Virus record (IMG/VR): IMGVR_UViG_3300035397_000191
Span: 1 to 35,625 of that record
Length of the DNA stretch: 35,625 nucleotides
Reading direction: 5' to 3' (one strand)
DNA from: a virus
Lineage: Duplodnaviria > Caudoviricetes
Position numbers and translations under genes: made by a program. The notes beneath the pieces were generated by a model. The model was not told the origin of the DNA and searched no databases. It saw only the letters and a list, made by a program, of their open reading frames with translations. Shown here one piece after another: positions 5,310 to 24,624 of the stretch (positions within the stretch are counted from its first letter, which is position 1; every line of letters starts with the position of its first letter).

Positions 5310-6675
5310 CACTCCCGAACTTCACCTTTAGCACCTTTGCTGCCGAACAAAGTACATCGATTGCATCCATTTTGTGATTATTATTGCCCTTAATATAATA
5401 GCTTGTTAAGTCTTTTATGAATTGGTAGTATTGTGGATTACTCTTGTAATTACTATCAAATACAAAGTGTTTTTGTACAAATTCATAGTTTGATAAAATA
5501 CGCACTTCCTTTGGCTCTGTGGACGTGAACGGCAATAGTTTGGTTAACCCTTGTATTTTCTCTTTTAGTGTCAACACTGCCGCCAAACCTACCCCGTTAG
5601 CTTCCACAATACACTCGTCTATCATGTATTGATGCAATTTATTTATTATTAATCCTGTGTTAGCAATTATACCTGCTTCATTGCAAATACAGTCTTTAAC
5701 ATAGCACGTTAATTTTTTATTACTAAAATCAACAAACATAAAAGGCATGGCATATTTATCGCCACCCTTATCGGCAGGGTCTCCAACACTTAACCGGTAT
5801 GTATAATGTGTTTGATTGATATTGCTTAAATCGTCAAAGCGCAAAGATGACAAAGGTAACAAAAGACCTTCCGCCTCAACTGGGGTCTGCATATATTCAG
5901 CATTCCATATTGACGAATCAATATCTGATTTTATTTTTAAGTATTCGGCTGTGCTTTTAACATCCTCGCAAAATGATTGATTATTTTCGTTTAAAGCAGG
6001 AATTATAGTAATACTTTTCAAGTCACCGCTTTCTATTGCTTCACCAATAATATCATTCTTTGTCCAACGTGTGCCAATATAAATCTCCGGACAGTTCTTT
6101 TCTTTTCGGCTATCGTGTGCTGATTGTTTCCAACTCTTTGTTGACTGTTGCACCTGACTTGACATTGCATCGGTCATCGACTTGTACAAATCGTCTGTGA
6201 TTGCAAGATTAGCACCGAATCCAATAATCGAACCCCCAACACCAGCACCGAAGTAACTCACTTGTTTTGCGGTAGATAAGTTCCAGCCGCCTACATTTTG
6301 CTTATCGGGCTGTAAACTTATTTCGGTAAATACTTCTTTTAATTTTGTATCTCTGAATAATGCCCTTGTATCATAACTAAATTTATCATATAGAGTTGCG
6401 GTACAAGTGTTTCGCATTACTGACAAGGTAGGGAAACGACACAACCAATAAGCAGCAAATAATGAAGTAATATAAGACTTTCCAGCACGTGGTGGCATTG
6501 ATACTGAAATCTTTATTGCATTGCCTTTTTCGTATTGAATTATAACTTCATTCATAGCATCTGCAACATCTATAAGAAAACGTCTTTTATTATAAAATTC
6601 GTAATCCATAAATAGACAAAACGACCAAAAATCTTTTTGAGCGAGTTGTTTTAAAGTTGCATTTCCTAAATACAT
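5299..6675 (-). CDS. terL: Terminase large subunit
   Basis: Walker A MPPRAGKS, ITDD Walker B, IGTRW, EYMQTP, GDPA nuclease Asp, IVEANGVG, HKMDAID. Confidence 0.95.
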   Translation of the reverse strand: MYLGNATLKQLAQKDFWSFCLFMDYEFYNKRRFLIDVADAMNEVIIQYEKGNAIKISVSMPPRAGKSYITSLFAAYWLCRFPTLSVMRNTCTATLYDKFSYDTRALFRDTKLKEVFTEISLQPDKQNVGGWNLSTAKQVSYFGAGVGGSIIGFGANLAITDDLYKSMTDAMSSQVQQSTKSWKQSAHDSRKEKNCPEIYIGTRWTKNDIIGEAIESGDLKSITIIPALNENNQSFCEDVKSTAEYLKIKSDIDSSIWNAEYMQTPVEAEGLLLPLSSLRFDDLSNINQTHYTYRLSVGDPADKGGDKYAMPFMFVDFSNKKLTCYVKDCICNEAGIIANTGLIINKLHQYMIDECIVEANGVGLAAVLTLKEKIQGLTKLLPFTSTEPKEVRILSNYEFVQKHFVFDSNYKSNPQYYQFIKDLTSYYIKGNNNHKMDAIDVLCSAAKVLKVKFGSVIY

Positions 6676-6972
6676 TTATCTTTGTTTTATTTCTTGAAGT
6701 GCTTTTTTAAATTGTTCGTCAGTTAGTTGTACAGGAACTTCATTGATTATTTCAGTTGTAGCATCAATAACTTGTTTAGGCTGCCCATATCTATAACCTA
6801 ACCATGTTTTAATTGCCTGTATATCGCACTCCTCTACTAACTTAGCTAATGAATCCCATACAGTATCAGGTACAAGCCTTTTATCCATTTGTTCAATCAT
6901 GGAAATCACATCGTTTTTTTTCAAACGACCTGAATTTTCTCTTGCACCTCCATGATTATTTTTCTTTTCCAT
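6676..6972 (-). CDS. terS: Terminase small subunit (putative)
   Basis: HGGARENSGR motif, AIKTWLGYRYGQPKQ; directly upstream of TerL; start MEKKNN lies downstream of CAAATATA at 7023-7030. Confidence 0.75.
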   Translation of the reverse strand: MEKKNNHGGARENSGRLKKNDVISMIEQMDKRLVPDTVWDSLAKLVEECDIQAIKTWLGYRYGQPKQVIDATTEIINEVPVQLTDEQFKKALQEIKQR

Positions 6973-11963: not shown

Positions 11964-14285
11964 ATGAACAAACCGACAATATCACGTTGCAACAAACTAT
12001 TAGACGATGGTTTTTCATTGTTGACAGTAGGAGATGGAAAAAAGCCAAATTTCACATGGAAAAAATCACAAACAAAGCCTTTGTCAAAAAATGATTTTAT
12101 AAAATTATATGAATATGCTGGTGGCGAATTTTATAAAGATAAAGACACAAATGAATTAATTGAGATAAAACCAACTTTAGGAATTGGAATAATAACAGGG
12201 TTTAATAATCTTGAAGTAATTGATATTGACTTGAAAGTTTTACCAACTTTGAAAGATCAACAAGATTTTTGGAATGAATATACAATGTACCTTCGGGAGT
12301 CAATCGATGACTTTGATAATAAATTTGTAATTTATAAAACTGTAAACAACGGATACCACATTATATATAAATGTGAAAAAATTGACAGAAATATAAAAAT
12401 TGCTAAACTTCAAGGATATAAAGAAGCTATTATTGAAAGTAGAGGTATTGGTGGATATGTTTGGATATATGATAATCAAGTAAGTAAGTTTGGTTATGAT
12501 AAAGTGCAAGAAATTTCAGAAAAAGACAGAGAGTTGCTTTGGGAAATATCAAGGTCTTTCAATTATGTTGAGCAACAGCCGGAACAACCAAAAGAGATAA
12601 TAAAAGAATACAGAAAAAATGAAAATGATATTACTCCTTGGGAAGATTTTAATAATAAAAACAGAATTTGGGACTTGATAAGCAACGAATTCACAATTGT
12701 AAAAAAGTTATCAAATAAGTTAATTATAAGAAGACACGATGCAACATCTGCAAGTAGTGGAAGTGTTTTTACAAAAGACAATAAAATGTTTTTGTTTTCT
12801 ACCGGAACACAATATCCACACGAGAAGCCTTTAAGCCCTTTTGATATTTATTCAATTAAAAATTACAACGGTGATTTTAAAAAAGCAGCTGCAGATTTAT
12901 ACTCGAAAAATTACGGAAGTAGAAATATTAAAAATAATCCTATAAAAATTGAAAACATAATAAAAGAAAAAACGGAAGATAAAATACCAAATAAAATAAT
13001 ATTTCCAATTGAAATATTTCCTGAAGATATTCAGTATTACATGAATATTTGTAATAAAACATTGAATAGCAATATTGATTATATGGGTTGCTCTTTTTTA
13101 TGGTTAATTTCTTTAATTGTAGGAAATTCAGTGAAAATTAAAGTAAAAAGCGGATGGATTGAAAGTGGCATTGTTTGGATTAGTTTAGTGGGTGAAGCAG
13201 GTATTGGGAAGACACCATCTATAAGCAGAATAATATATCCATTAGAAAAAATTAACAATTTAGAAATAAAAAAATATATTAATAATTCAAAGCTATATGA
13301 AGCATATAATAATTTGGATAAAAAAGAAAAGCAAAATAATGAGGAAGTAAAAAAACCAACAAAATCGCAAATTATAGTTTCAGATTTCACTATTGAAGCA
13401 ATAACAGACTTACATGAAGAGAATAAAAATTCTGTAGGAGTTTTTTGTGATGAATTAGCAGGCTGGTACAAAGATATGAATAAGTATAGAGCTGGTTCAG
13501 ACTTAGAATATTGGTTAAGTAGCTGGTCTAATAAGGGAATTGCACAAAACAGAAAAACAGCTAAAAGTACCTTTGTTGAAAGTCCTATTTTGCCTGTTTT
13601 AGGTGGCATCCAACCTAAAATATTAGTACAATTTTTTACAGAAGAGAATAAAGATAATGGATTTATTGATAGAATGCTTACAACTTATCCCGATGCAATA
13701 GTTGATAATTATAATGAAGAGGATTTAGGGGAAGATGTAATTGATTGGTATAATGATTATATTGTTAATTTTTACAATATGATAAAATTAACAATATTAA
13801 ATTATCATCCTGATGGTGAAATAAAATCAAAAATCGCTATATTATCAGATGGAGCCAAAAAACTATGGGTTGATATTTTTAACAAAATTACTTCGCATCA
13901 AAATTCAGATGAAGAGAATGAATACATGAAAAGTATGTATCCGAAACAAAAATCTTATATACCTAGATTTGCATTATTACTTAATACTTTATATTGGTAT
14001 GATGACAAAGATAATTATTCATTAAGTATAATTTCTGAAAAGGCAATGAAAAACGCAATTGAATTATCTACCTATTTTGTATTAATGGCTAAAAAACACA
14101 AAATTAGTTCGATAGAATATTCAGAAGTAAAAAAAGTAATAACACAAAATGAAAATAAAACTACAAAGGAAAAAATAATTGAAATATTAAATAAAGACCC
14201 GAATACAAAGGTTACATATATTTCAAGTATATTAGGTATTTCAAAAAAAACTGTTTATCAATATATTAATGAATTAAAAAAATAA
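11964..14285 (+). CDS. Bifunctional primase-polymerase fused to DUF3987-type P-loop helicase and C-terminal HTH
   Basis: VIDID, TVNNGYH, ESRGIGGY (PrimPol); GEAGIGKT Walker A, DFTIEA, DELAGW, GGIQP, NGFIDR; ISSILGISKKTVYQY HTH. Confidence 0.88.
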   Translation: MNKPTISRCNKLLDDGFSLLTVGDGKKPNFTWKKSQTKPLSKNDFIKLYEYAGGEFYKDKDTNELIEIKPTLGIGIITGFNNLEVIDIDLKVLPTLKDQQDFWNEYTMYLRESIDDFDNKFVIYKTVNNGYHIIYKCEKIDRNIKIAKLQGYKEAIIESRGIGGYVWIYDNQVSKFGYDKVQEISEKDRELLWEISRSFNYVEQQPEQPKEIIKEYRKNENDITPWEDFNNKNRIWDLISNEFTIVKKLSNKLIIRRHDATSASSGSVFTKDNKMFLFSTGTQYPHEKPLSPFDIYSIKNYNGDFKKAAADLYSKNYGSRNIKNNPIKIENIIKEKTEDKIPNKIIFPIEIFPEDIQYYMNICNKTLNSNIDYMGCSFLWLISLIVGNSVKIKVKSGWIESGIVWISLVGEAGIGKTPSISRIIYPLEKINNLEIKKYINNSKLYEAYNNLDKKEKQNNEEVKKPTKSQIIVSDFTIEAITDLHEENKNSVGVFCDELAGWYKDMNKYRAGSDLEYWLSSWSNKGIAQNRKTAKSTFVESPILPVLGGIQPKILVQFFTEENKDNGFIDRMLTTYPDAIVDNYNEEDLGEDVIDWYNDYIVNFYNMIKLTILNYHPDGEIKSKIAILSDGAKKLWVDIFNKITSHQNSDEENEYMKSMYPKQKSYIPRFALLLNTLYWYDDKDNYSLSIISEKAMKNAIELSTYFVLMAKKHKISSIEYSEVKKVITQNENKTTKEKIIEILNKDPNTKVTYISSILGISKKTVYQYINELKK

Positions 14286-14296
14286 ACATCTTAGTA

Positions 14297-14518
14297 ATGC
14301 AATCAGGCGACAAAATAACAATTAACCGGCAAGTATATGAAGCGTACTGTTTCGATATTGAAAAAAATAGCCTGAAAACAAATTGCAGCTCACCTTGTAT
14401 TATGTGCGATTTTGATGCTTTTAAAGATATGGAAATTTGCAAAACGGTTGATTGCATTAATGGAACTGACTTTTTATATTTGAAAAAATATTCAACACAA
14501 CTAAATTTATTTGATTAA
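14297..14518 (+). CDS. Cys-rich hypothetical protein
   Basis: ORF with CxxPCxxC; ends QLNLFD. Confidence 0.6.
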   Translation: MQSGDKITINRQVYEAYCFDIEKNSLKTNCSSPCIMCDFDAFKDMEICKTVDCINGTDFLYLKKYSTQLNLFD

Positions 14519-14879: not shown

Positions 14880-15650
14880 ATGATACTTAGACGATTAGGA
14901 AATAAAAAAGCAATAATGCCTAAACTTATACAATACTTCCCCGAACATACTACTTGGATTGAACCTTTTTTTGGCAGTGGTTCGGTTTTCTTTTATAAGA
15001 AAAAAGCGAAATATAATTTTTTAAATGATATTGATTCAAATGTATATAACTGTTTTGATGTTATTATAAGGCATAAAGAAGAGCTTAAAACATATTTGGA
15101 GCTTATTCCTATACATATAGACTTTTGGAACGAATGCAAAACACGGACACCAGATAATAACATCGAAAAAGCAGTTTATTTTTTATTTTTATCAAATTTC
15201 GGATACATGGGTAAGCCTAATACATTGCGATACACACTTGATTATTCAAAAGATGTTCTACTTAAAAATTTAGAATTAACGTATAAAAATTTAGTAAGTT
15301 GCGAGAATCAATTTCTAAATTGTGATTTTCGAGAACTTTTTAAAAAAATATCATTAAAAAATGAAATAGGGATAAATAATTCATTCATATACTGCGACCC
15401 ACCGTACTTGAGTACGGATGATAACTACAGCCATTCTTTTACACAGCAGGATAGTATTGATTTATTCAATACGCTGCAAAATACTGGAATTAAATGGGCA
15501 ATGAGTGAGTTTGATAATCCGTTTATAATTCAACAAGCAAGAGAGAGAAATTTGAATATAATTATTATCGGTGAACGTAGAAATATTAAAAACATACGTA
15601 CTGAAATATTGATAACAAACTACAGAAAAAACGCAACACTTTTTGACTAA
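14880..15650 (+). CDS. Dam/D12-class N6-adenine DNA methyltransferase
   Basis: LGNKK, EPFFGSGSVFF, LNDID, YCDPPY, EILITNY. Confidence 0.92.
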   Translation: MILRRLGNKKAIMPKLIQYFPEHTTWIEPFFGSGSVFFYKKKAKYNFLNDIDSNVYNCFDVIIRHKEELKTYLELIPIHIDFWNECKTRTPDNNIEKAVYFLFLSNFGYMGKPNTLRYTLDYSKDVLLKNLELTYKNLVSCENQFLNCDFRELFKKISLKNEIGINNSFIYCDPPYLSTDDNYSHSFTQQDSIDLFNTLQNTGIKWAMSEFDNPFIIQQARERNLNIIIIGERRNIKNIRTEILITNYRKNATLFD

Positions 15651-16191: not shown

Positions 16192-16309
16192 AAAAATCGG
16201 CAGACCGAAAAAAGAGCCAACCAAAGTTATAAGTTTTAGAGTTCCTATAAAATATTCTGAATTGTTAAAAACAAAATTCAAAAACTATTTAGATAGTTTT
16301 GCTAAATAA
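16152..16309 (+). CDS. Small basic DNA-binding protein (RHH-like)
   Basis: MEKRGGKR...GRPKKEPTKVISFRVP; start approximate. Confidence 0.6.
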
Positions 16310-16442
16310 AAAACAGCCAATTCGCAAATTATTGCAATGTCCACTGACAATGCTATGATTATTATTTCGCAAAGTGCGCTAAAATAGAAATAAACGACAT
16401 AGTACTTAATAAAGATAATTAAGTCAGACTAGGCTGTTTTTT
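16308..16442 (+). other. Multi-stem structured element closed by an 11-bp inverted repeat
   Basis: AAAAAACAGCC/GGCTGTTTTTT enclosing CTGAC/GTCAG, CTATG/CATAG, TTATTTC/GAAATAA and TTAAT/ATTAA stems. Confidence 0.55.
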
Positions 16443-16468
16443 CTTTTTATTTAAATATTAAAATAATA

Positions 16469-16900
16469 ATGGACTTTAAAATAAAACATTTGCAACTTTA
16501 TTTAGCCGGACAATATAACTTGCTACATAAATCTTTAGGCGTTGAATTAGTCGAGTTAGGTTTTTTAAATTACAGAAAACTAACCGCTGAAAATTACGAA
16601 TTCTGGTGGTATGAAATTGAAGATAAATCAAAAATTGATAGAAAATCTTTTACATACAATTGGAGCGATTTAATTCCGACAAGGAAAATAGAAATGATAA
16701 AAAAATATATTGCATTTCATAATCAAAATGAAAGTATGTATAAACTAATCACAGCAATTTTAAACATAGAATCAGCAAGGTTTGACGGTATAGATATGCT
16801 TATAGGTAAATCAGAATTTGAAAAACAAATTGAGTTCTACTATGCCGGTCGACTTAAGAAACAACCTCGGCAAGCGCAACTTTTTTTTAATTATTCCTAA
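16469..16900 (+). CDS. Hypothetical protein heading the cassette array
   Basis: 143 aa; its TAA stop is the TAA of the first TAAC core. Confidence 0.75.
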   Translation: MDFKIKHLQLYLAGQYNLLHKSLGVELVELGFLNYRKLTAENYEFWWYEIEDKSKIDRKSFTYNWSDLIPTRKIEMIKKYIAFHNQNESMYKLITAILNIESARFDGIDMLIGKSEFEKQIEFYYAGRLKKQPRQAQLFFNYS

Positions 16901-16943
16901 CGACAAATGCTATTGGCGTAGGCGTGTGTTATGGGCATGCCGT
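16894..16943. repeat. attC-like site S1 (internally collapsed)
   Basis: TTCCTAAC...TAGGCGTGT-GTTATGGGCATGCCGT; only 34 bp from TAAC to GTTA, no full stem. Confidence 0.65.
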
Positions 16944-16974
16944 TTCTCTTATATTAATCTTAAAATTCAATAGT

Positions 16975-17076
16975 ATGTTAGAAATCTTTGTATCAATTTG
17001 TTCAGGTTTTATCGGATGGTTAATTGCTTATTCAATAATAAAATATATTCAAAAATGGAAACGAAACACGAAGTAA
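16975..17076 (+). CDS. Cassette A: 33-aa membrane peptide
   Basis: MLEIFVSICSGFIGWLIAYSIIKYIQKWKRNTK. Confidence 0.5.
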   Translation: MLEIFVSICSGFIGWLIAYSIIKYIQKWKRNTK

Positions 17077-17249
17077 AAATGATTGAAGTTGATTTTCTTT
17101 GTCCTAAATGTGAAAAAGGAAATTTAAGACCAAACGGAAATGTGTCTTAGTTGTCAGATCCTCAACAATTTCCTCATAAATGTAATAGTTGCGATTATGA
17201 GCAAACTTTTACTGTAAAATATCCAACTCTGTCTTATGTTATAGTATAG
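17055..17249 (+). pseudogene. Cassette A: zinc-ribbon protein with in-frame TAG
   Basis: METKHEV...CPKCEKGNLRPNGNVS*LSDPQQFPHKCNSCDY...; TAG at 17148-17150 lies between the two CxxC motifs. Confidence 0.7.
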
Positions 17250-17263
17250 CTGTCTTTTTTTTT

Positions 17264-17371
17264 ACGGCTGCGCATAACGACCGAAATATGGGCGCACGGC
17301 TGCGATAAACTTTCAACCTTGCACAAACTTTCTGCCGTGTATCCTTTTAGGTGCGTGTTATGTTTCAGGGC
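17264..17371. repeat. attC-like site S2
   Basis: ACGGCTGCGCATAAC ... CACGGC/GCCGTG stem ... GTTATGTTTCAGGGC. Confidence 0.8.
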
Positions 17372-17414
17372 TTTCTTATCTTCAAACAAAATATTAATCT
17401 TTAAACATAAAAAA

Positions 17415-17672
17415 ATGGAATTAATTGATTCACAAGAAAAAACACTTTTTTCTGATATTGAAAAAATCAAAAATCAGATAGCAGCATTTAAAGAACGTGG
17501 TTTTATGGGTTCTTATGGAAATTTTTTGCCATATACTGTAAAACAAGCTGATAAAATATCCGTGAAATTAAAAGAGGCAGGGATTAACTTTGAAATACAA
17601 AAGTCAACTAAAAAAGGATATATAAAGGTCGTATTTTCAGACCTGCTCGATTTGCCTGTTTTTTTGCCTTGA
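17415..17672 (+). CDS. Cassette B hypothetical protein
   Basis: Start MELIDSQEK; stop lies inside the end arm. Confidence 0.7.
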   Translation: MELIDSQEKTLFSDIEKIKNQIAAFKERGFMGSYGNFLPYTVKQADKISVKLKEAGINFEIQKSTKKGYIKVVFSDLLDLPVFLP

Positions 17673-17810
17673 ACATAACTGTTTGCATAAGATTAGTACG
17701 GGGATAGAAAGCGAAAACCTCCTGAACTACTCGAAACTTATTAAAATGTAATTCGCTCAAATTTGGCACTAAACCCCGTATTAATTTTATGCTGTGTTAT
17801 AGCCAGTTAT
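17666..17810. repeat. attC-like site S3
   Basis: GCCTTGAACATAAC; 19-bp stem GCATAAGATTAGTACGGGG/CCCCGTATTAATTTTATGC; GTTATAGCCAGTTAT. Confidence 0.88.
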
Positions 17811-17821
17811 TTATCAATATT

Positions 17822-18082
17822 ATGACAGAACAAGAAAAAACAATTGCAAAGATTTTTGACAAATCAGTTGAAGCATTAGGAATAATGACAAAATCATTAT
17901 GTGATGCAATCAAATCAACAAAAACAGAAAAGCGATATGTAATGTATCAAGACCAAAAATGCGAACTACTTGGAACAACTGATGCAGGTGGAACTTTAAA
18001 TACAGGGGGATTAGCATTTTGTATTATCATACCAGGCGGGAAAGTCAAAAATGTTCAAGATACGCACTGCACTTTCTTATAA
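17822..18082 (+). CDS. Cassette C hypothetical protein
   Basis: Start MTEQEK; stop lies inside the end arm. Confidence 0.7.
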   Translation: MTEQEKTIAKIFDKSVEALGIMTKSLCDAIKSTKTEKRYVMYQDQKCELLGTTDAGGTLNTGGLAFCIIIPGGKVKNVQDTHCTFL

Positions 18083-18198
18083 TTGGCTATAACGGACAAC
18101 TGCTATGATTATAAGCCCAATTACGGGTGCATAGCTTTCGTGAAGCGATGCAATTAATGCGGTCAGGTGAACATAGACGAGTTTTATGCGGTCATTGT
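18079..18198. repeat. attC-like site S4 (core G mutated to T)
   Basis: ATAATTGGCTATAAC; CTATG/CATAG and TGCAT/ATGCA stems; tTTATGCGGTCATTGT. Confidence 0.75.
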
Positions 18199-18254
18199 TG
18201 GTTTTTCTTCAAATTAAAATTGTATTATCTGTACTTAATAGATTAAAAGCAAAT

Positions 18255-18437
18255 ATGAATAGATTTCAAGTGTACAAAATTGTACGAAATAATAGAAAAA
18301 TGCACATTATGAGTTTATTTTCTGAAAATAGAATTACTGCAATTTCAGAATTTAAAAAAGAACATAAATGGGCTATAATTGGGTTTAAATTTTGGAACTA
18401 TTATATAACTGGGTTAATGCAAAATGGAAACTATTAA
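18255..18437 (+). CDS. Cassette D ORF1
   Basis: Start MNRFQVYK. Confidence 0.55.
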   Translation: MNRFQVYKIVRNNRKMHIMSLFSENRITAISEFKKEHKWAIIGFKFWNYYITGLMQNGNY

Positions 18438-18576
18438 ATTCAAAATTTGGAATGATTATAGTAAAAGTTTAATCCGTTGTGTTCGAGCTCACTATCCTAA
18501 AGATAAATATGTTGTTGTTAAAAAGAAAAAATATCATAAATATACTACTTACTACTTAAAATTAAAGACAAAATGA
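18424..18576 (+). CDS. Cassette D ORF2, basic 50 aa
   Basis: Hand translation METIKFKIWNDYSK...LKLKTK; ATGA overlap with next ORF. Confidence 0.55.
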   Translation: METIKFKIWNDYSKSLIRCVRAHYPKDKYVVVKKKKYHKYTTYYLKLKTK

Positions 18577-18782
18577 AAACAGAAAAAAAGTATTTAGAAA
18601 GAGAATTAGTGTCATTTGCTAATTATGTTTTATCAGAAGATAGAAAAGGAACTATCCACAAAGGTCATTCACAATCTATTGTTTATCATTCAGATATAGA
18701 AAATTGGAAAGTTTCCTGTAAAAATGCAGATAAACGACCAATTGAATTGTCAGAAAACGGCACTCCGCTGCGACCCTGTTAG
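18573..18782 (+). CDS. Cassette D ORF3
   Basis: ELVSFANYVLSEDRK...VYHSDIENWK. Confidence 0.7.
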   Translation: MKTEKKYLERELVSFANYVLSEDRKGTIHKGHSQSIVYHSDIENWKVSCKNADKRPIELSENGTPLRPC

Positions 18783-18790
18783 TTTTTTTT

Positions 18791-18858
18791 ACAATTCCGC
18801 ATAACGTATAGGCTATAGGCGGTATTCCAGCCTATAGGCGTGTGTTATGCGCTTGCCT
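18791..18858. repeat. attC-like site S5
   Basis: ACAATTCCGCATAAC; CTATAGGC/GCCTATAG stem; GTTATGCGCTTGCCT. Confidence 0.88.
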
Positions 18859-18886
18859 TTCTTTCTTAATTCTTAAAATTGTCAAA

Positions 18887-19036
18887 ATGAAAATAATAAC
18901 CAAAATAGAAAAATACAAAAATAGAAAAGTATATTACGCTTTCAACTTAATTGATATATGTTTTATAACCACTTTTCAAGTAACAGCTTTTAATATAACT
19001 ATCTGCAATATATTAATCCAATTTCATCATACTTAA
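18887..19036 (+). CDS. Cassette E ORF1, 49 aa
   Basis: Start MKIITKIEK; paralogous remnant at 21920-22027. Confidence 0.6.
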   Translation: MKIITKIEKYKNRKVYYAFNLIDICFITTFQVTAFNITICNILIQFHHT

Positions 19037-19047
19037 AAACGCTACAA

Positions 19048-19311
19048 ATGAATACAGAAGAAAAAATGTCATTAGAACAAAAACAGGATTTTATTATTGA
19101 AACTCTTTTTGAGTATTTCAAAAACGGAGTTGATATTATGTTTGAAAATCAAGCAAAATTTATGTCAATCGAAAACGATAAACGTCAACGTGAAAATATT
19201 GGACGCAAGTACAGATTCTTTAAACAAAAGTCGATTCTAACAGATTCTGAAAAACAAGAACTTGAATATGTTACTTTTCTTGTCGAAGTAGAAAAGGTTC
19301 TTGTTTTTTAG
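19048..19311 (+). CDS. Cassette E ORF2
   Basis: 87 aa; TAG stop lies in the end arm. Confidence 0.7.
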   Translation: MNTEEKMSLEQKQDFIIETLFEYFKNGVDIMFENQAKFMSIENDKRQRENIGRKYRFFKQKSILTDSEKQELEYVTFLVEVEKVLVF

Positions 19312-19457
19312 GCTTTCCAATAACGGCACATTTGTATGTGAAACAGGCGATTTACGAGAGTTTCGCCTTATAACTATACAAACGTTCGCACGAGTAAATA
19401 TAATTCTAATACGCACTCTACAGCCTGATTTACATACAATGTGTTATGCGCTTGCCT
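19310..19457. repeat. attC-like site S6
   Basis: AGGCTTTCCAATAAC; ACATTTGTATGTGAAACAGGC/GCCTGATTTACATACAATGT stem; GTTATGCGCTTGCCT. Confidence 0.88.
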
Positions 19458-19500
19458 TTCTTTCTTAATTCTTAAAATATTCACTTTAAAAACAAATTAT

Positions 19501-19695
19501 ATGAACTTAACACCAAAACAAAAAGCGAGCGAATTAGTAAAAAAGTACAAATAAATTTCTGGTTTTTTCAGATTTTCGAAGGCGTATGCTTTAATTACAG
19601 TTGATGAAATAATATCTGCATTAGTAGGCTTCAATACTGCTGAAGAATTTGGTAATTATTGGGAAAAGTTAAAAAACGAAATAGAAAAATTATAA
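19501..19695 (+). pseudogene. Cassette F ORF1 with in-frame TAA
   Basis: MNLTPKQKASELVKKYK*ISGFF...ALITVDEII...YWEKLKNEIEKL; TAA at 19552-19554; resembles 22203..22448. Confidence 0.72.
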
Positions 19696-19696
19696 T

Positions 19697-19999
19697 ATGC
19701 AAACATTAGAACAAGCTGCTCAAAAAAGAGCAAATAAATTTTCGGAAATAATTGTCGAAGGTACTGAAATACCATGCTTAATTGAAGATTTAAACTTATG
19801 GTCAAAAGAAGATTTTAAAAAAGGTTTTGAATTTGCAAATAAATGGTATTCTTCAAAACGAAAAAATACTCCAGTGAATAAAAATCTACTTTGTAAAGTT
19901 GAAGATTTCTACATTATTGGATTCTTTGACGGAAATAAATGGTTTAACGTTTCAAGTCGTGAAGTCGAAAACGTTACACACTGGCGTCTGATTTTTTAG
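19697..19999 (+). CDS. Cassette F ORF2, DUF551-like C-terminus
   Basis: MQTLEQAA...FKKGFEFA..W...P...VTHWR pattern. Confidence 0.7.
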   Translation: MQTLEQAAQKRANKFSEIIVEGTEIPCLIEDLNLWSKEDFKKGFEFANKWYSSKRKNTPVNKNLLCKVEDFYIIGFFDGNKWFNVSSREVENVTHWRLIF

Positions 20000-20138
20000 G
20001 CTTGCGCATAACGGTCGCTACTATACTGATTTAGTGGCTTTCACAAATGATGGATAGCGAACAAAACTTATTAATTACACTTCGGTAGCATAACCCCACG
20101 CCAATAAATAGGGATAGTTAGATGTTATGGTTTCGTTA
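19998..20138. repeat. attC-like site S7
   Basis: AGGCTTGCGCATAAC; ACTATACTGATTTAGTGGC/GCCAATAAATAGGGATAGT stem; GTTATGGTTTCGTTA. Confidence 0.85.
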
Positions 20139-20173
20139 TTTTCTTTCTTATTTAACATTTTTATTCTACTTAT

Positions 20174-20563
20174 ATGCAAATCGAAAAAAACGGATTACTA
20201 TTTGAAAAAGAAATTGCAAACTGTGAAAATGCAAATACTTGTAACGGATGCTATTTTCAAGACAATCCACACATTGAAGGCTGTAATCCTAATTTATGCA
20301 GCGATTACGAAGGTTGTGAAATTCAAGAAATGTATATTTTTAAATTCATATCTGGTAAAATCGGATCTTTTGATAATCAAAAAATTGAAAAGGAAATAGA
20401 AATTCAAGAAAACAAAATTACTGAACGAATGATTAAAGGTCGTTCAGTTGGCGGAACTGCTGGAGCTTTAAATCGTGATATTGATAATATGGGCAAAAAG
20501 TTGGATAACCTTAAAAGTCGGTTAAACCTTCAAACTTCGCTTTCTTTTTATCATGAACCATAA
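20174..20563 (+). CDS. Cassette G Cys-rich/coiled-coil protein
   Basis: CNGCYF motif; the stop TAA is the TAAC core. Confidence 0.72.
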   Translation: MQIEKNGLLFEKEIANCENANTCNGCYFQDNPHIEGCNPNLCSDYEGCEIQEMYIFKFISGKIGSFDNQKIEKEIEIQENKITERMIKGRSVGGTAGALNRDIDNMGKKLDNLKSRLNLQTSLSFYHEP

Positions 20564-20643
20564 CGACTTAGGCTATAATTTTCGGCTCTTTGATTTAGGA
20601 GCATTTGAGCCTAAATTATAGGATTGTGTTATTGGCATGCCGT
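20551..20643. repeat. attC-like site S8
   Basis: TCATGAACCATAAC; CTATAATTTTCGGCTC/GAGCCTAAATTATAG stem; GTTATTGGCATGCCGT. Confidence 0.88.
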
Positions 20644-20680
20644 TTCTTTCTTAAATTTTCATCTTAAAAATATAAACAAA

Positions 20681-20959
20681 ATGGAAAAAGTAAAATTTGA
20701 CGAAAAGTATTTAAACATTGATTTAATAAAATCTGATTACGAAAAGTATTGTAGTCAAATTGAAAATGTTAGAACAAACGCAGAATATGATTTGATTAAA
20801 GAAAAAGCAGACGTTTTATATTCTTTAATTTCTGCTTTCCTTTCAAAAACTGATATGGTTAATTTGTATGTTCAATATAAATATGACGTTTCAGTTTTGA
20901 CAGCCGAAATAACTAAACTAAAAAATCAAGTCAAAAAACTAAAAAATAAACATGCATAG
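20681..20959 (+). CDS. Cassette H coiled-coil protein
   Basis: Start MEKVKF. Confidence 0.7.
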   Translation: MEKVKFDEKYLNIDLIKSDYEKYCSQIENVRTNAEYDLIKEKADVLYSLISAFLSKTDMVNLYVQYKYDVSVLTAEITKLKNQVKKLKNKHA

Positions 20960-20967
20960 TTTTTTTT

Positions 20968-21115
20968 ACGGCTGCCCATAACGACCGAAAATATAGGCAA
21001 TAGCTGGATGCGGCGCTGAACACTTAAATACTATACTTTCGGTGGTGCGGGTGCAAATGCTTATAATACAGAAAAGGCAAGCTAATGACTATATTTAAGT
21101 GTTATCGGCTTTTGT
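20968..21115. repeat. attC-like site S9
   Basis: ACGGCTGCCCATAAC; AAATATAGGCAATAGCT/AGCTAATGACTATATTT stem; GTTATCGGCTTTTGT. Confidence 0.88.
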
Positions 21116-21153
21116 TTCTTTCTTTTCGAGTTATAATTTAATAATATAAAAAT

Positions 21154-21816
21154 ATGAATACAATTGAAAATTTAAAAAATTCGTTTGATTTAGAATTTGA
21201 ACGGACAAAACAAGACATGAATGAATTTTCGGGGTGTGCAACCGCAAGTAAATTATTCAAAGAATTATTAGGCGATAAAGTAAAAATACTTGATTCATTC
21301 GGAAGTGGGAAACTAACTGCTACATTCAAAAAAATACAATTAGAAGCAAGCGGAGTACGTGGATATAGACAGATAAGAATTAGTAATGCACCTCAACATA
21401 TTGTAGGCTTTGAATTAAATAGATATTCTAAGTTTGACGAGGTTGTAGTTGGTGATATTTATCTTGACATTGATTTTAAATGTATTGTTTTTAAAAATAT
21501 AGAAGTAAACGCTCCAATGGGTTCAACTCATGCAAAATTTTTTATAAAAGAAATTGGGTTTCCTGACTTATTTTATCAGAAAAAAGAGAAAGTATGGTCA
21601 CAACTTAGAACATCTTTTCATGGAACGTATGAAAGCAATTACATTGATTTAAATGATTGCAATAGATTAAAGATACCAACATATACTGATTTTACTCACA
21701 AACAACAAAGTAGGTCTATTGTTTTGGTTGTCGGAGTTGAGTTTTTTCAAAACGTTGGAGATAAATATTATCTTTTCCAAACAGGTAACGCAGCAAAAGT
21801 TCTGAACGTCTTTTAG
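21154..21816 (+). CDS. Cassette I: conserved Bacteroidota-type hypothetical protein
   Basis: FERTKQDMNEF...RGYR...VGFELN...LVVGVEFFQNVGDKYY resembles, from memory, a bacterial hypothetical family. Confidence 0.7.
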   Translation: MNTIENLKNSFDLEFERTKQDMNEFSGCATASKLFKELLGDKVKILDSFGSGKLTATFKKIQLEASGVRGYRQIRISNAPQHIVGFELNRYSKFDEVVVGDIYLDIDFKCIVFKNIEVNAPMGSTHAKFFIKEIGFPDLFYQKKEKVWSQLRTSFHGTYESNYIDLNDCNRLKIPTYTDFTHKQQSRSIVLVVGVEFFQNVGDKYYLFQTGNAAKVLNVF

Positions 21817-21834
21817 ATCCGAATGGCTTTTTCT

Positions 21835-21869
21835 ACAATTGCCGATAACAATATTATATACGAAGTACA
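21835..21869. repeat. Terminal non-hairpin site T1 (attI-like)
   Basis: Cassette end arm then ATAACAATATTATATACGAAGTACA (21845-21869), identical to 23269-23293. Confidence 0.75.
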
Positions 21870-21881
21870 AATATTTGAACC

Positions 21882-22027
21882 ATGATAATAGATACAGATA
21901 ACTACAATGCTCAAGAACTTTCAATTTAATAGATATATGCTTTATAAATACTTTTCATGTGATAAGTTTAAATATAACTATTTGTAATTTACTAATTAAA
22001 TTTCATTATACTAAAAAACGCTATTAA
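21882..22027 (+). pseudogene. Frameshifted paralog of 18887..19036
   Basis: FNLIDICFINTFHVISLNITICNLLIKFHYT frame has no in-frame start; the ATG at 21882 is in another frame. Confidence 0.6.
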
Positions 22028-22215
22028 TGAATACAGATATATTCACAAAAGTAGGATTTGTAATGGTTTTTCTTTTCGCAGGAATGGGAATAGCAACCTT
22101 TACATTATGGGTCATAAATAAGTTTTTGACTTACTTATTCAAAACTCTCAAACTTTGGAAAATACTAATAGATTTTATTTTCGATTATAAACAATTTAAA
22201 AAATGGAAAAAATGA
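22027..22215 (+). CDS. Small membrane protein (unit J)
   Basis: One hydrophobic helix. Confidence 0.65.
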   Translation: MNTDIFTKVGFVMVFLFAGMGIATFTLWVINKFLTYLFKTLKLWKILIDFIFDYKQFKKWKK

Positions 22216-22448
22216 TACACACATTAGCAATAAAGAGTATTTTTGAAAAAGAAAAGAAAAAGGTAAAAAATAAATATACACACTTTGGGCTAACTCCATT
22301 ACAAAAAACCGATAAATTGATTTTTTTGTTTGGAAAAGAAAAAGCTATAGAATATGTAAATGAAAGAATAAAATGGCATTTTGGTAGTAGTTTAAAGGAT
22401 AGATTAGATTACTGGAAAGAAGTTAAACAAAGAATAGAAAATTTATGA
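22203..22448 (+). CDS. Hypothetical protein (unit J)
   Basis: LTPLQK...YWKEVKQRIENL. Confidence 0.7.
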   Translation: MEKMIHTLAIKSIFEKEKKKVKNKYTHFGLTPLQKTDKLIFLFGKEKAIEYVNERIKWHFGSSLKDRLDYWKEVKQRIENL

Positions 22449-22666
22449 ACGCAACAATCAACGGAACTAATTATCATTCAGATTTGAAGTTCAACCAAGA
22501 AAAGGGAGAAATAACTATTGAAGTTATTCAATGTCGAAAAGTAATTTGTCAAAAAATTACTAAAATGGATTTGTCTTTGTCGCAATTGGAAATAGAATCC
22601 TTCAAACTTTTATATTCTAATCTTGTCGGCACGACTTCTAAACCCGATGAGCTAAGTCTTTTTTAG
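22445..22666 (+). CDS. Hypothetical protein (unit J)
   Basis: ATGA-coupled; TAG lies in the end arm. Confidence 0.65.
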   Translation: MNATINGTNYHSDLKFNQEKGEITIEVIQCRKVICQKITKMDLSLSQLEIESFKLLYSNLVGTTSKPDELSLF

Positions 22667-22736
22667 CCTTGCCCATAACGACGGTGTATGTGCATCCGTA
22701 TTTCGGTGCACATTACACATTGTTATAAGCAGTTTT
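22665..22736. repeat. attC-like site S10
   Basis: AGCCTTGCCCATAAC; GTGTATGTGCATCCG/CGGTGCACATTACAC stem; GTTATAAGCAGTTTT. Confidence 0.88.
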
Positions 22737-22778
22737 TTTTCTTATATTTCTTATTTTCAAACAATTAAATACATAAAA

Positions 22779-23240
22779 ATGAAAACTACAATTTTAGATT
22801 TACAACTTGAAACGATTCGAGAATTTCAAGAAAAATATCCCAAAAGCCATGTAGGTGGAAGTTTTGGCTTATTTCTTTTAGGTTATGATTTGAAACGTGA
22901 TATGTCAGAATCTGATTTAGATTTGATTTGTCCAGCTTTTGAAAAAGAACAGTATTTAATTGATAAAAATGATACGCTTGAAGAAACAAGTGATAGCAAT
23001 GACTTTGATTTTAAATACAGACGTTGGTTCGGGAATATTTATGTAAAACATGATATTTGCATAAATTCAGAGCAAGAATTTCAGATTATAGAGCGCAACG
23101 GTGAAAAATACAACGTTTCTTTATTTGAAAACATTATGAAATTCAAACGTGAATATGCTGATAAAGGTGTTTTTAAACATAAAGCTGATATTGAAGCAAT
23201 AGAAACTGGTGTTAGACCTGTCGAAAATTCGACGATATAG
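22779..23240 (+). CDS. Cassette K: Pol-beta-like nucleotidyltransferase-fold protein
   Basis: HVGGSFGL...SDLDL (GS...DxD), distal HD, KHKADI. Confidence 0.65.
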   Translation: MKTTILDLQLETIREFQEKYPKSHVGGSFGLFLLGYDLKRDMSESDLDLICPAFEKEQYLIDKNDTLEETSDSNDFDFKYRRWFGNIYVKHDICINSEQEFQIIERNGEKYNVSLFENIMKFKREYADKGVFKHKADIEAIETGVRPVENSTI

Positions 23241-23258
23241 ACTTCTATTTTGGTTTTT

Positions 23259-23293
23259 AAAATTGCTTATAACAATATTATATACGAAGTACA
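23259..23293. repeat. Terminal non-hairpin site T2 (attI-like)
   Basis: AAAATTGCTT + ATAACAATATTATATACGAAGTACA; marks the end of the array. Confidence 0.75.
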
Positions 23294-24267: not shown

Positions 24268-24624
24268 ATGCAACAAAAAGGAATTAAAATTCAAGAGTTC
24301 GATAAATTAAGAATTGGTAACTATGTAATATCAGAACTATATCAACAAGATAAGTTATATACTACTGTAGATTCTGATTTTTTAGAAAAAGTCGATTTTG
24401 TTAAATATTACGGTATAGTATTAACAGAGGAGTTAATTCTGAAATTAGGTTTTTCAAAAACAAAAACAAAAAACATATTTTATAAAGATAAATTTGTTAT
24501 ATATATGGCATTAGATGTTTTTTTAGTTTGGTATAATTCTGTATCTTTTCTTGATATTTTTCGTTATGTTCACGAGCTACAAAATATATACTTTTCAAGG
24601 CTTAATGAAGAGTTAATTTTTTAA
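24268..24624 (+). CDS. Hypothetical phage protein (YopX-like)
   Basis: LRIGNYV...IVLTEELILKLGF...YVHELQNIYF. Confidence 0.7.
   Translation: MQQKGIKIQEFDKLRIGNYVISELYQQDKLYTTVDSDFLEKVDFVKYYGIVLTEELILKLGFSKTKTKNIFYKDKFVIYMALDVFLVWYNSVSFLDIFRYVHELQNIYFSRLNEELIF

Follow-up and report, generated by a model that had tools for sequence, protein, structure and literature searches.

A region of a phage genome, positions 16885 to 23293 of the IMG/VR virus record IMGVR_UViG_3300035397_000191 (Caudoviricetes), is probably a mobile gene-cassette array, one that likely works in the manner of an integron cassette array. The window analyzed here is that whole record, 35,625 nucleotides (nt) in length and 54% complete according to CheckV. 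The array comprises about eleven small gene cassettes, designated A to K. New here are the length over which the two ends of a single cassette match each other, precise whole-unit variants whose joints share 5–7 bases at the motif ATAAC, and the fact that no tyrosine, serine, or Y1 HUH recombinase was found in the window or in two near-complete or complete relatives that bear arrays. Already published are clusters of attC sites lacking an integron integrase (CALINs) in virulent phages, among them Polaribacter phage P12002L (Qi et al. 2023, PMC9892861; here and below we refer to parts of that article, and likewise of the other papers cited). The region is best filed as an integron-like phage array of the CALIN type, with a cassette-private stem longer and more elaborate than those known.

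The cassettes are bounded by two arms of constant design. The start arm consists of GTTAT, four private bases, 1–3 unpaired nt, four private bases, and then a TTTCTTTCTTA-like tract. The end arm consists of a T-run, an A, four private bases, a T followed by T or G, four private bases, and ATAAC. When the arms of one unit are paired across the gene, they form a stem of 5 conserved pairs (GTTAT/ATAAC), 4 inner private pairs, an unpaired middle (1–3 nt on the start arm versus 1–2 nt on the end arm), and 3–4 outer private pairs. An earlier note on this DNA had described the pattern as 9 bp, a 1–2 nt discontinuity, and 4–5 bp, which holds in this form. The nine arm pairs it quoted (A, B, C, D, F, G, H, I, and K) all lie in place on the plus strand, and the span it gave, 16928 to 23273, runs from the first base of the A start arm to the last base of the K end arm. 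Its nine units are correct, but it left out E, which has a mismatched end arm, and J, which has no start arm. The parts of the array are as follows.

16885 to 16901, plus strand: left anchor; the end arm of the last fixed gene (open reading frame, ORF, 16469 to 16900), ending in CTAAC, with T-run, arm, and CTAAC laid out like the cassette ends.
16902 to 17278, plus strand: unit A; spacer 16902 to 16927, start arm 16928 to 16943, small ORFs, end arm 17264 to 17278.
17279 to 17679, plus strand: unit B; spacer 17279 to 17356, start arm from 17357, ORF 17415 to 17672, end arm to 17679.
17680 to 18093, plus strand: unit C; spacer 17680 to 17795, start arm from 17796, ORF to 18082, end arm 18079 to 18093.
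18094 to 18805, plus strand: unit D; spacer 18094 to 18182, start arm from 18183, three small ORFs, end arm 18791 to 18805.
18806 to 19324, plus strand: unit E, chimeric; spacer 18806 to 18843, arm-bounded part 18844 to 19324.
19325 to 20012, plus strand: unit F; spacer 19325 to 19442, start arm from 19443, ORF 19697 to 19999, end arm 19998 to 20012.
20013 to 20564, plus strand: unit G; spacer 20013 to 20123, start arm from 20124, ORF 20174 to 20563, end arm to 20564.
20565 to 20982, plus strand: unit H; spacer 20565 to 20627, start arm from 20628, ORF 20681 to 20959, end arm 20968 to 20982.
20983 to 21849, plus strand: unit I; spacer 20983 to 21100, start arm from 21101, ORF 21154 to 21816, end arm 21835 to 21849.
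21850 to 22679, plus strand: segment J; a 20-nt box (21850 to 21869) directly after ATAAC, no start arm, three ORFs, end arm at 22679.
22680 to 23273, plus strand: unit K; spacer 22680 to 22721, start arm from 22722, ORF 22779 to 23240, end arm 23259 to 23273.
23274 to 23293, plus strand: second copy of the 20-nt box, identical to 21850 to 21869, directly after the ATAAC of K at the right end of the array.

The ends of a cassette match each other better than they match the ends of other cassettes. For the fold test in the window, each unit's own upstream spacer and start arm were kept and all 12 candidate end arms were tried. The own end arm gives the most stable fold in 8 of 10 units, B among them. 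It ranks second in A, where the arms contain one inner mismatch and the start arm pairs slightly better with the end arm of H, and sixth in E. The summed energy is −201.0 kcal/mol for the circle form and −142.7 kcal/mol for the array context, with permutations at −151.5 ± 8.2. Circles closed in silico are more stable than the sites in array context by about 5.8 kcal/mol on average. The earlier note had proposed this circularization and folding with a permutation test, and its expectation is borne out: self pairings are the more stable, and 0 of 100,000 permutations reach the observed energy. Its further statement, that an arm generally pairs better with its partner beyond the gene than with the one beyond the neighboring hairpin, is correct for 9 of 10 units, the exception being E.

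A larger set was drawn from pattern scans of viral and metagenome contigs, in which arrays were annotated cassette by cassette, failures included. It holds 28 consecutive cassettes from four arrays: 10 in the window, 5 in phage G001, 9 in contig L261, and 4 in contig L243. In 24 of the 28, no end arm suits the start arm better than the unit's own, which is strictly the best in 19, and again no permutation (0 of 100,000) reaches the observed sum. Thus, self pairings proved better than shuffled ones in a larger dataset, the point on which the earlier note had staked its claim. Taken array by array, the permutations reaching the observed value number 0 of 20,000 for the window and for L261, 159 of 20,000 for G001, and 811 of 20,000 for L243, the latter two being short arrays. 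With four single cassettes added, the own arm is best or joint-best in 28 of 32 cases, and in 21 of 32 by a stricter energy measure; these four are a biased addition because their detector demanded complementarity. On the reverse strand of L261, positions 5782 to 6886 hold a compound cassette with non-matching ends, the gene of which gives weak matches to radical SAM, DUF5131, and spore photoproduct lyase models, all below cut-offs.

Covariation is evident along the private part of the stem. At the position just outside the unpaired middle, a conserved G·T is present in 18 of the 28 cassettes and a Watson–Crick pair in the other 10. The remaining private positions each display 3–4 types of Watson–Crick pair, with 24–27 of the 28 cassettes so paired, and the fifth conserved pair changes jointly from T-A to G-C in 4 of 28. 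Arm mismatches amount to 26 G·T and 6 A·C, most of the G·T falling at one conserved position. The earlier note had regarded the arms as private to each unit. They do co-vary within a unit, but they are not strictly private, since arm pairs recur around different genes: F-type arms are present in L249, and an A/H-type pair occurs in both G001 and L261. A conserved TTTCTTTCTTA...CTTAAAAT leader follows 3′ of the start arms, and the ORF stop codons often lie within the T-run, the arm, or ATAAC, as in B, where the stop codon is inside the end arm.

Natural variants define the unit that moves. They come from metagenome contigs and from Logan contigs of eight runs of microbial-mat metagenomes (X-coded contigs), and they include phages that are 95–100% identical to the window yet carry different cassette content. 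Specifically, unit I and its upstream spacer are absent from L276, X2, and X5, with a joint at ATAAC and 5 shared bases. Unit K and its spacer are absent from L276, X2, X4, X5, and X6, again with 5 shared bases at the joint, and unit G with its spacer is absent from an X6 contig, with 7 shared bases. Order also varies: X3 has unit I, together with its own spacer, placed after K; X4 has K followed by J; and X5 has F followed by the spacer of B, with 11 shared bases. L228 carries a different self-matching cassette in place of D and E, and contigs of X3 and X5 with a joint at D are read as the same replacement.

In total, seven distinct joint types were found. Six lie at ATAAC, of which four share only 5–7 bases, always ATAAC or CATAACG, and the breakpoint is inside or just 3′ of the end-arm ATAAC. 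Because so few shared bases are too short to produce assembly chimeras (k-mers of about 31) or to support ordinary homologous recombination, these joints argue for mobility. Thus, what changes as one unit is the spacer together with the start arm, gene, and end arm, and the crossover is at the end-arm ATAAC. None of the six ATAAC joints runs from GTTAT to ATAAC, which is unlike the behavior of a transposon with terminal inverted repeats.

The seventh joint type is the loss of E, seen in L303, X2, X3, and X5, and its joint lies inside a 39-nt repeat. The start arm of E is a copy of that of F over this repeat, and the E end arm does not match. The loss of E is ordinary homologous recombination between the E/F direct repeats, and it fits the view that E is a chimera. 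A further repeat links E to segment J: about 120 nt at 18939 to 19058 recur at 21918 to 22037 with 82.5% identity, upstream of the ORFs at 19048 and 22027.

The 20-nt box may be a docking site of the attI kind. Insertions of units I and K, as well as of other metagenome cassettes, are located precisely where ATAAC meets this box, and no integrase gene lies beside it. A similar box follows TAAC beyond the annotated cassettes in L243.

Between cassettes, all ten window junctions fold as imperfect hairpins in which TAAC pairs with GTTA, and the plus strand folds better in 9 of the 10. The termini are (A/C)TAAC...GTTAT in nine; the C/D junction reads TTTAT, which the start arm of D carries in place of GTTAT. 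Spacers range from 26 to 118 nt in the window and from 26 to 120 nt in other correctly placed junctions. In a set of 31 junctions, three automatic ends of which are misplaced and to be disregarded (L261 5130, L261 8200, and L228 967), a GGCTATG-like box is present 6–8 nt inside TAAC in 10 and an ATAGGC-like box 4–5 nt inside GTTA in 13. The spacer of C is a long hairpin with G·T pairs. Unit C contains repeat I21 (15 nt, 93% complementary), and unit K contains repeat I6 (18 nt, 94% complementary). An arrayed spacer sits between the arms of two different units, and those arms pair over only about 5–6 bp. Junction elements of the window have 81–87% identity to those of G001, a 47-kb phage that is otherwise not related to it; in unit H, the stretch of spacer, start arm, and leader is 85% identical to a G001 junction. 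By contrast, comparison of the window cassette genes with the G001 genes gave no match. An Rfam scan of the window also gave no match. Terminator-like matches occur at chance frequency (5 versus 2.6 ± 1.9), as do sigma-70-like matches in a scan that does not cover Bacteroidota promoters.

In integrons, the integrase IntI acts on attI and on sites with R and L boxes, and crossover occurs at G|TT. The window shares with them GTT/AAC core bounds, structure-defined sites, conserved ends around a variable middle, a stem base that two neighboring cassettes jointly supply while arrayed and that circle formation restores, a crossover next to AAC, and whole-cassette polymorphism among close relatives. 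Its junctions have the form of attC sites, which are imperfect palindromes of about 55–140 nt with outer R boxes (...AAC and GTT...), and whole cassettes change at a G|TT crossover. Unlike a complete integron, the window has no IntI gene adjoining the array and, beyond the candidate 20-nt box, no recognizable attI or Pc platform, and each of its cassettes seems to carry its own leader.

The closest published relatives are the phage CALINs. As in the window, small genes, most of them unknown, stand in a row there; the imperfect palindromes between them have TAAC...GTTA termini, and no integrase is nearby (PMC9892861). The window junction termini match the phage attC sites in Table S3 of Qi et al. 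The CALIN clusters hold 2–4 predicted sites where these are counted, against about eleven units in the window. Several features of the window are not found in the portions of the CALIN account examined (PMC9892861): the length of the self-match, the unpaired middle and its conserved G·T, the natural gain, loss, and reordering of units, and the crossover position. In the same study, IntI1 recombined 5 of 6 tested phage sites. The two sites tested from Tetrasphaera phage TJE1 were both recombined, and the self-match of the cassette that they flank is 8 bp long, versus 5 + 4 + 3–4 pairs in the window cassettes; the long self-match of the window is therefore a real difference. The earlier note's comparison with integrons, in which the ends of one cassette match, is right in kind, and its estimate of a pairing about twice as long agrees with these lengths.

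Phage P12002L provides a direct counterpart. The cassette of its methyltransferase gene gp35 has the same self-match of 9 bp, TT/TT, and 4 bp that unit F displays. The junction before this cassette is the HattCI-predicted P12002L_attC1 of Qi et al. and is window-like in design, while P12002L attC2, beyond the end of the gp35 cassette, was recombined by IntI1 (PMC9892861). DNA methyltransferase genes occur in or beside such arrays, with AAC/GTT-type arms, not only in P12002L but also at L243 3662 to 4639 (minus strand) and L133 15545 to 16370.

Precedents exist for mobile DNA that lacks a recombinase and borrows that of its host. The attP site of the CTX phage, which Xer uses, exists only as a folded single strand, and Acinetobacter plasmids carry Xer-dependent dif modules. 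Xer-binding arms end in ...CATAA just before the cut, a sequence that resembles the window end arms. The elements proposed here would be similar to these Xer-dependent elements in that they would be mobile without a recombinase of their own and would use a host tyrosine recombinase. Bacteroidetes microviruses likewise use Xer (PMC3091885). The window arms are nonetheless not dif or pdif sites: dif sites have two 11-bp arms around a 6–8 bp center, whereas the inverted arms in the window lie 26–158 nt apart.

If the array does operate like that of an integron, the following course may be envisaged. A unit would leave the array as a circle, in which its end arm, spacer, and start arm become contiguous. 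One strand of this site, likely the better-folding plus strand, would form a long, imperfect hairpin. The layout of the hairpin would be attC-like: its outer stem would center on TAAC/GTTA, followed by unpaired bases, a conserved inner box, and a loop that varies. The circle would be cut at ATAA|C and joined to a further ATAAC, in many cases the one preceding the 20-nt box, by a structure-reading recombinase that is likely a tyrosine enzyme of the IntI/Xer type. Repeated excision and insertion would keep the two arms of a unit complementary while their sequence drifts. The enzyme, not being in the window record, would likely come from the host or from a co-resident element, and we infer that it is a host or helper tyrosine recombinase.

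A more specific proposal, which we put forward tentatively and consider possible rather than probable, is that Bacteroidota phages have an integron-like accessory-gene system of their own that does without an integron integrase. Structure alone would define the site, with 5 pairs fixed, about 8 private, and an invariant G·T with a bulge. Its stem would be complete only in the excised circle, so that the recombinase could distinguish a free cassette from an arrayed one. A host Xer-type or unrecognized enzyme would act on it, and unrelated phages of one habitat would share a pool of cassettes.

Searches for the enzyme covered the window and its relatives. No window ORF scanned against Pfam and PHROGs is a recombinase, in a record that is 54% complete. 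In G003, a 100% complete relative that has no array, no tyrosine, serine, or Y1 HUH recombinase was found, and the Y1 HUH profile PF01797 is absent from four phage records. Contig L261 does encode a phage integrase, of 384 residues and with weak Xer likeness. Its gene is 3.3 kb away from the array and next to those of an S24 repressor and an antirepressor, an arrangement that looks like an ordinary lysogeny module. Because no recombinase has been identified, the earlier note's suggestion of a distinct recombinase family is without support. The DUF6549 protein, whose gene adjoins the array end, was considered as the recombinase and rejected, as its sequence suggests a membrane-anchored protein.

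Several results weigh against an integron-like mechanism. Profiles PF00589, PF00239, and PF01797 find nothing in the window, in G001 (94% complete), or in P12002L, and of 401 genomes sampled from the class to which Flavobacteriaceae belong, a single one gives an integron integrase model score above cut-off. The window genes, which have the hairpin on their upstream side, face the opposite way from those of usual integron cassettes. By the TAAC/GTTA box, the additional unpaired bases are on the 5′ half of the plus strand; in canonical attC sites, where extrahelical bases mark the recombining strand, they are on the 3′ half of the bottom strand. Spacer and arm families reassort between phages, which a strict one-sided crossover alone does not explain: the spacer family of unit G, for example, also occurs in G001, L243, and L261, with other arms on both sides. 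P12002L_attC1, the published site of window-like design, was the sole one of the six tested that failed with IntI1 (PMC9892861). Finally, the earlier note held that the units had existed as circles and arrived independently. Whole units do differ between near-identical phages, and the long stem forms only when a unit is closed on itself, so that a circular intermediate is supported indirectly, but no circle junction was seen in the assembled contigs.

Other accounts of the array have been weighed. PeSL cassettes, which pair a terminator stem-loop with an early promoter, were reportedly treated for T4-type phages by Comeau et al. in 2014. If the window junctions were regulatory cassettes of this kind, shuffled by homologous recombination, the pairing of the arms would serve transcription or mRNA stability, for example through 5′–3′ end pairing of a processed mRNA. 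Such an account is unlikely, though much in the window is congenial to it: the array lies in the early plus-strand block in the midst of small genes whose function is unknown, phages that are not related have junction families in common, the start arms are followed by a conserved TTTCTTTCTTA...CTTAAAAT leader, the G·T pairs favor the transcribed strand, and E is lost by plain recombination between 39-nt direct repeats. PeSL-mediated gene shuffling and mini-circles in T4-type phages have, moreover, been published (Arbiol et al. 2010, PMC2839356), and the likeness extends to repeated intergenic elements that flank small non-essential phage genes and to modular shuffling with possible mini-circles. 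PeSLs, however, act via homology between copies (PMC2839356), whereas most window joints share 5–7 bases at one motif and the unit ends co-vary; four joints share those bases exactly at ATAAC, with flanks that have no homology. The terminator-like matches are not above chance, the T-run stands before the hairpin rather than after it, and arms that pair with partners 300–750 nt away, rather than adjacent ones, are no feature of PeSLs.

The mobile units might also require no dedicated recombinase. Replication could stall at the hairpins, and the polymerase could then slip, or change its template, from one of the short ATAAC repeats at the hairpin feet to another, in a single genome or across genomes that infect together. 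Indeed, three joints are simple deletions between direct repeats of 5–7 bases that flank hairpin-forming DNA, no recombinase gene was found, and the phage encodes a RecE-like exonuclease and a RusA-like resolvase. We nevertheless judge slippage to be quite improbable, as it leaves unexplained the covariation of unit ends, the conservation of site design across unrelated phages, and the insertion of one unit at two different ATAAC sites. Least probable of all is that the units are small non-autonomous transposons with terminal inverted repeats, served in trans by a transposase (DDE, or a single-strand HUH enzyme like those of IS200/IS605, with insertion 3′ of a fixed pentanucleotide) and landing between hairpin spacers. 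Inverted repeats do bound each gene unit, folding is asymmetric between the strands, and insertion is always just 3′ of ATAAC by a unit that itself ends in ATAAC, such that tandem insertion could grow arrays. Yet the mobile units carry a spacer on one side and run from ATAAC to ATAAC, no target duplication was seen, and the repeats are private, unlike the shared ends that a transposase binds. The Y1 HUH gene is missing from the four phage records, and in place of the hairpins at both ends that mark IS200/IS605 elements there is one hairpin per unit, the right end having no local hairpin.

A mobile, integron-like cassette array remains the probable explanation of the region, and its genomic setting is as follows. 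The minus strand of the window carries capsid, portal, and large terminase genes. An early plus-strand block encodes, besides the exonuclease and the resolvase, a DUF3987 primase-helicase and a Dam-type methylase; the cassette array is located at the end of this block, and tail genes lie further on. A Bacteroidota host is likely, judging from the primase-helicase, whose database matches are weak and mostly to Cellulophaga phages (14 of 17). Comparison of the large terminase yielded no host information. Of the 16 cassette ORFs, 15 have no PHROG family match, and none of 14 scanned against Pfam scores above the curated cut-off.

No DNA near-identical to the window was matched in the phage collection, and the DUF6549 gene, used as a query, recovered no relatives. 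The primase-helicase query returned 80 loci, among which only L133/L134 has one plausible cassette; complete relative G003 was found in the same manner. The motif pattern occurs at 37 places in bacterial species genomes, none of which is an array, and a simple screen of 20 kb of G286, a Bacteroidia genome with a true integron integrase, found no sites of window design. A looser scan of viral contigs, GTTAT N9–11 TTTCTTTCTTA, gave mostly chance hits among the matches listed, whereas the tighter pattern worked.

The DNA to the left of the array has features of its own. The summed contig depth over 16400 to 16643 is about 4–8 times that of neighboring DNA (110 versus 14 in X2; 64 versus 14.9 in X3), the contigs diverge at 16642 into a spacer end and a GTTAG-type start arm, and the first part of ORF 16469 to 16900 seems common to several phages. 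The intergenic stretch before this ORF, 16309 to 16468, is bracketed by AAAAACAGCC ... GGCTGTTTTT, a long-range inverted repeat that has no TAAC/GTTA core. The end arm of the fixed gene (16883 to 16900) has an 18-nt, 89% complementary partner at 17876 to 17893, within the ORF of cassette C and 975 nt downstream (repeat I9), a pairing that may be chance or a relic. To the right, outside the array, the phrog_10066 gene at 24268 to 24624 (plus strand) is 37% identical to a G001 cassette gene (reverse strand, 15002 to 15403). In L133, a relative of the window phage, a G+C-rich non-coding stretch with tRNA-like T-arm sequence lies at 14100 to 14400, downstream of a small ORF.

By the integron rule, the first bases of a cassette match the attC of that cassette; these results lengthen the match from about 7 to about 13 pairs. 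The extension occurs where integron integrases appear to be rare, which raises the question of which enzyme acts. A cassette of this design is present in a cultured phage, Polaribacter phage P12002L, so that question is open to bench work. More broadly, it has long been asked how phages acquire and trade their numerous small genes without known function, many of which are suspected of countering host defenses. The present case offers a defined unit of exchange, a defined breakpoint, and a testable site design, and its natural variants indicate that exchange is occurring in the phage populations of microbial mats.

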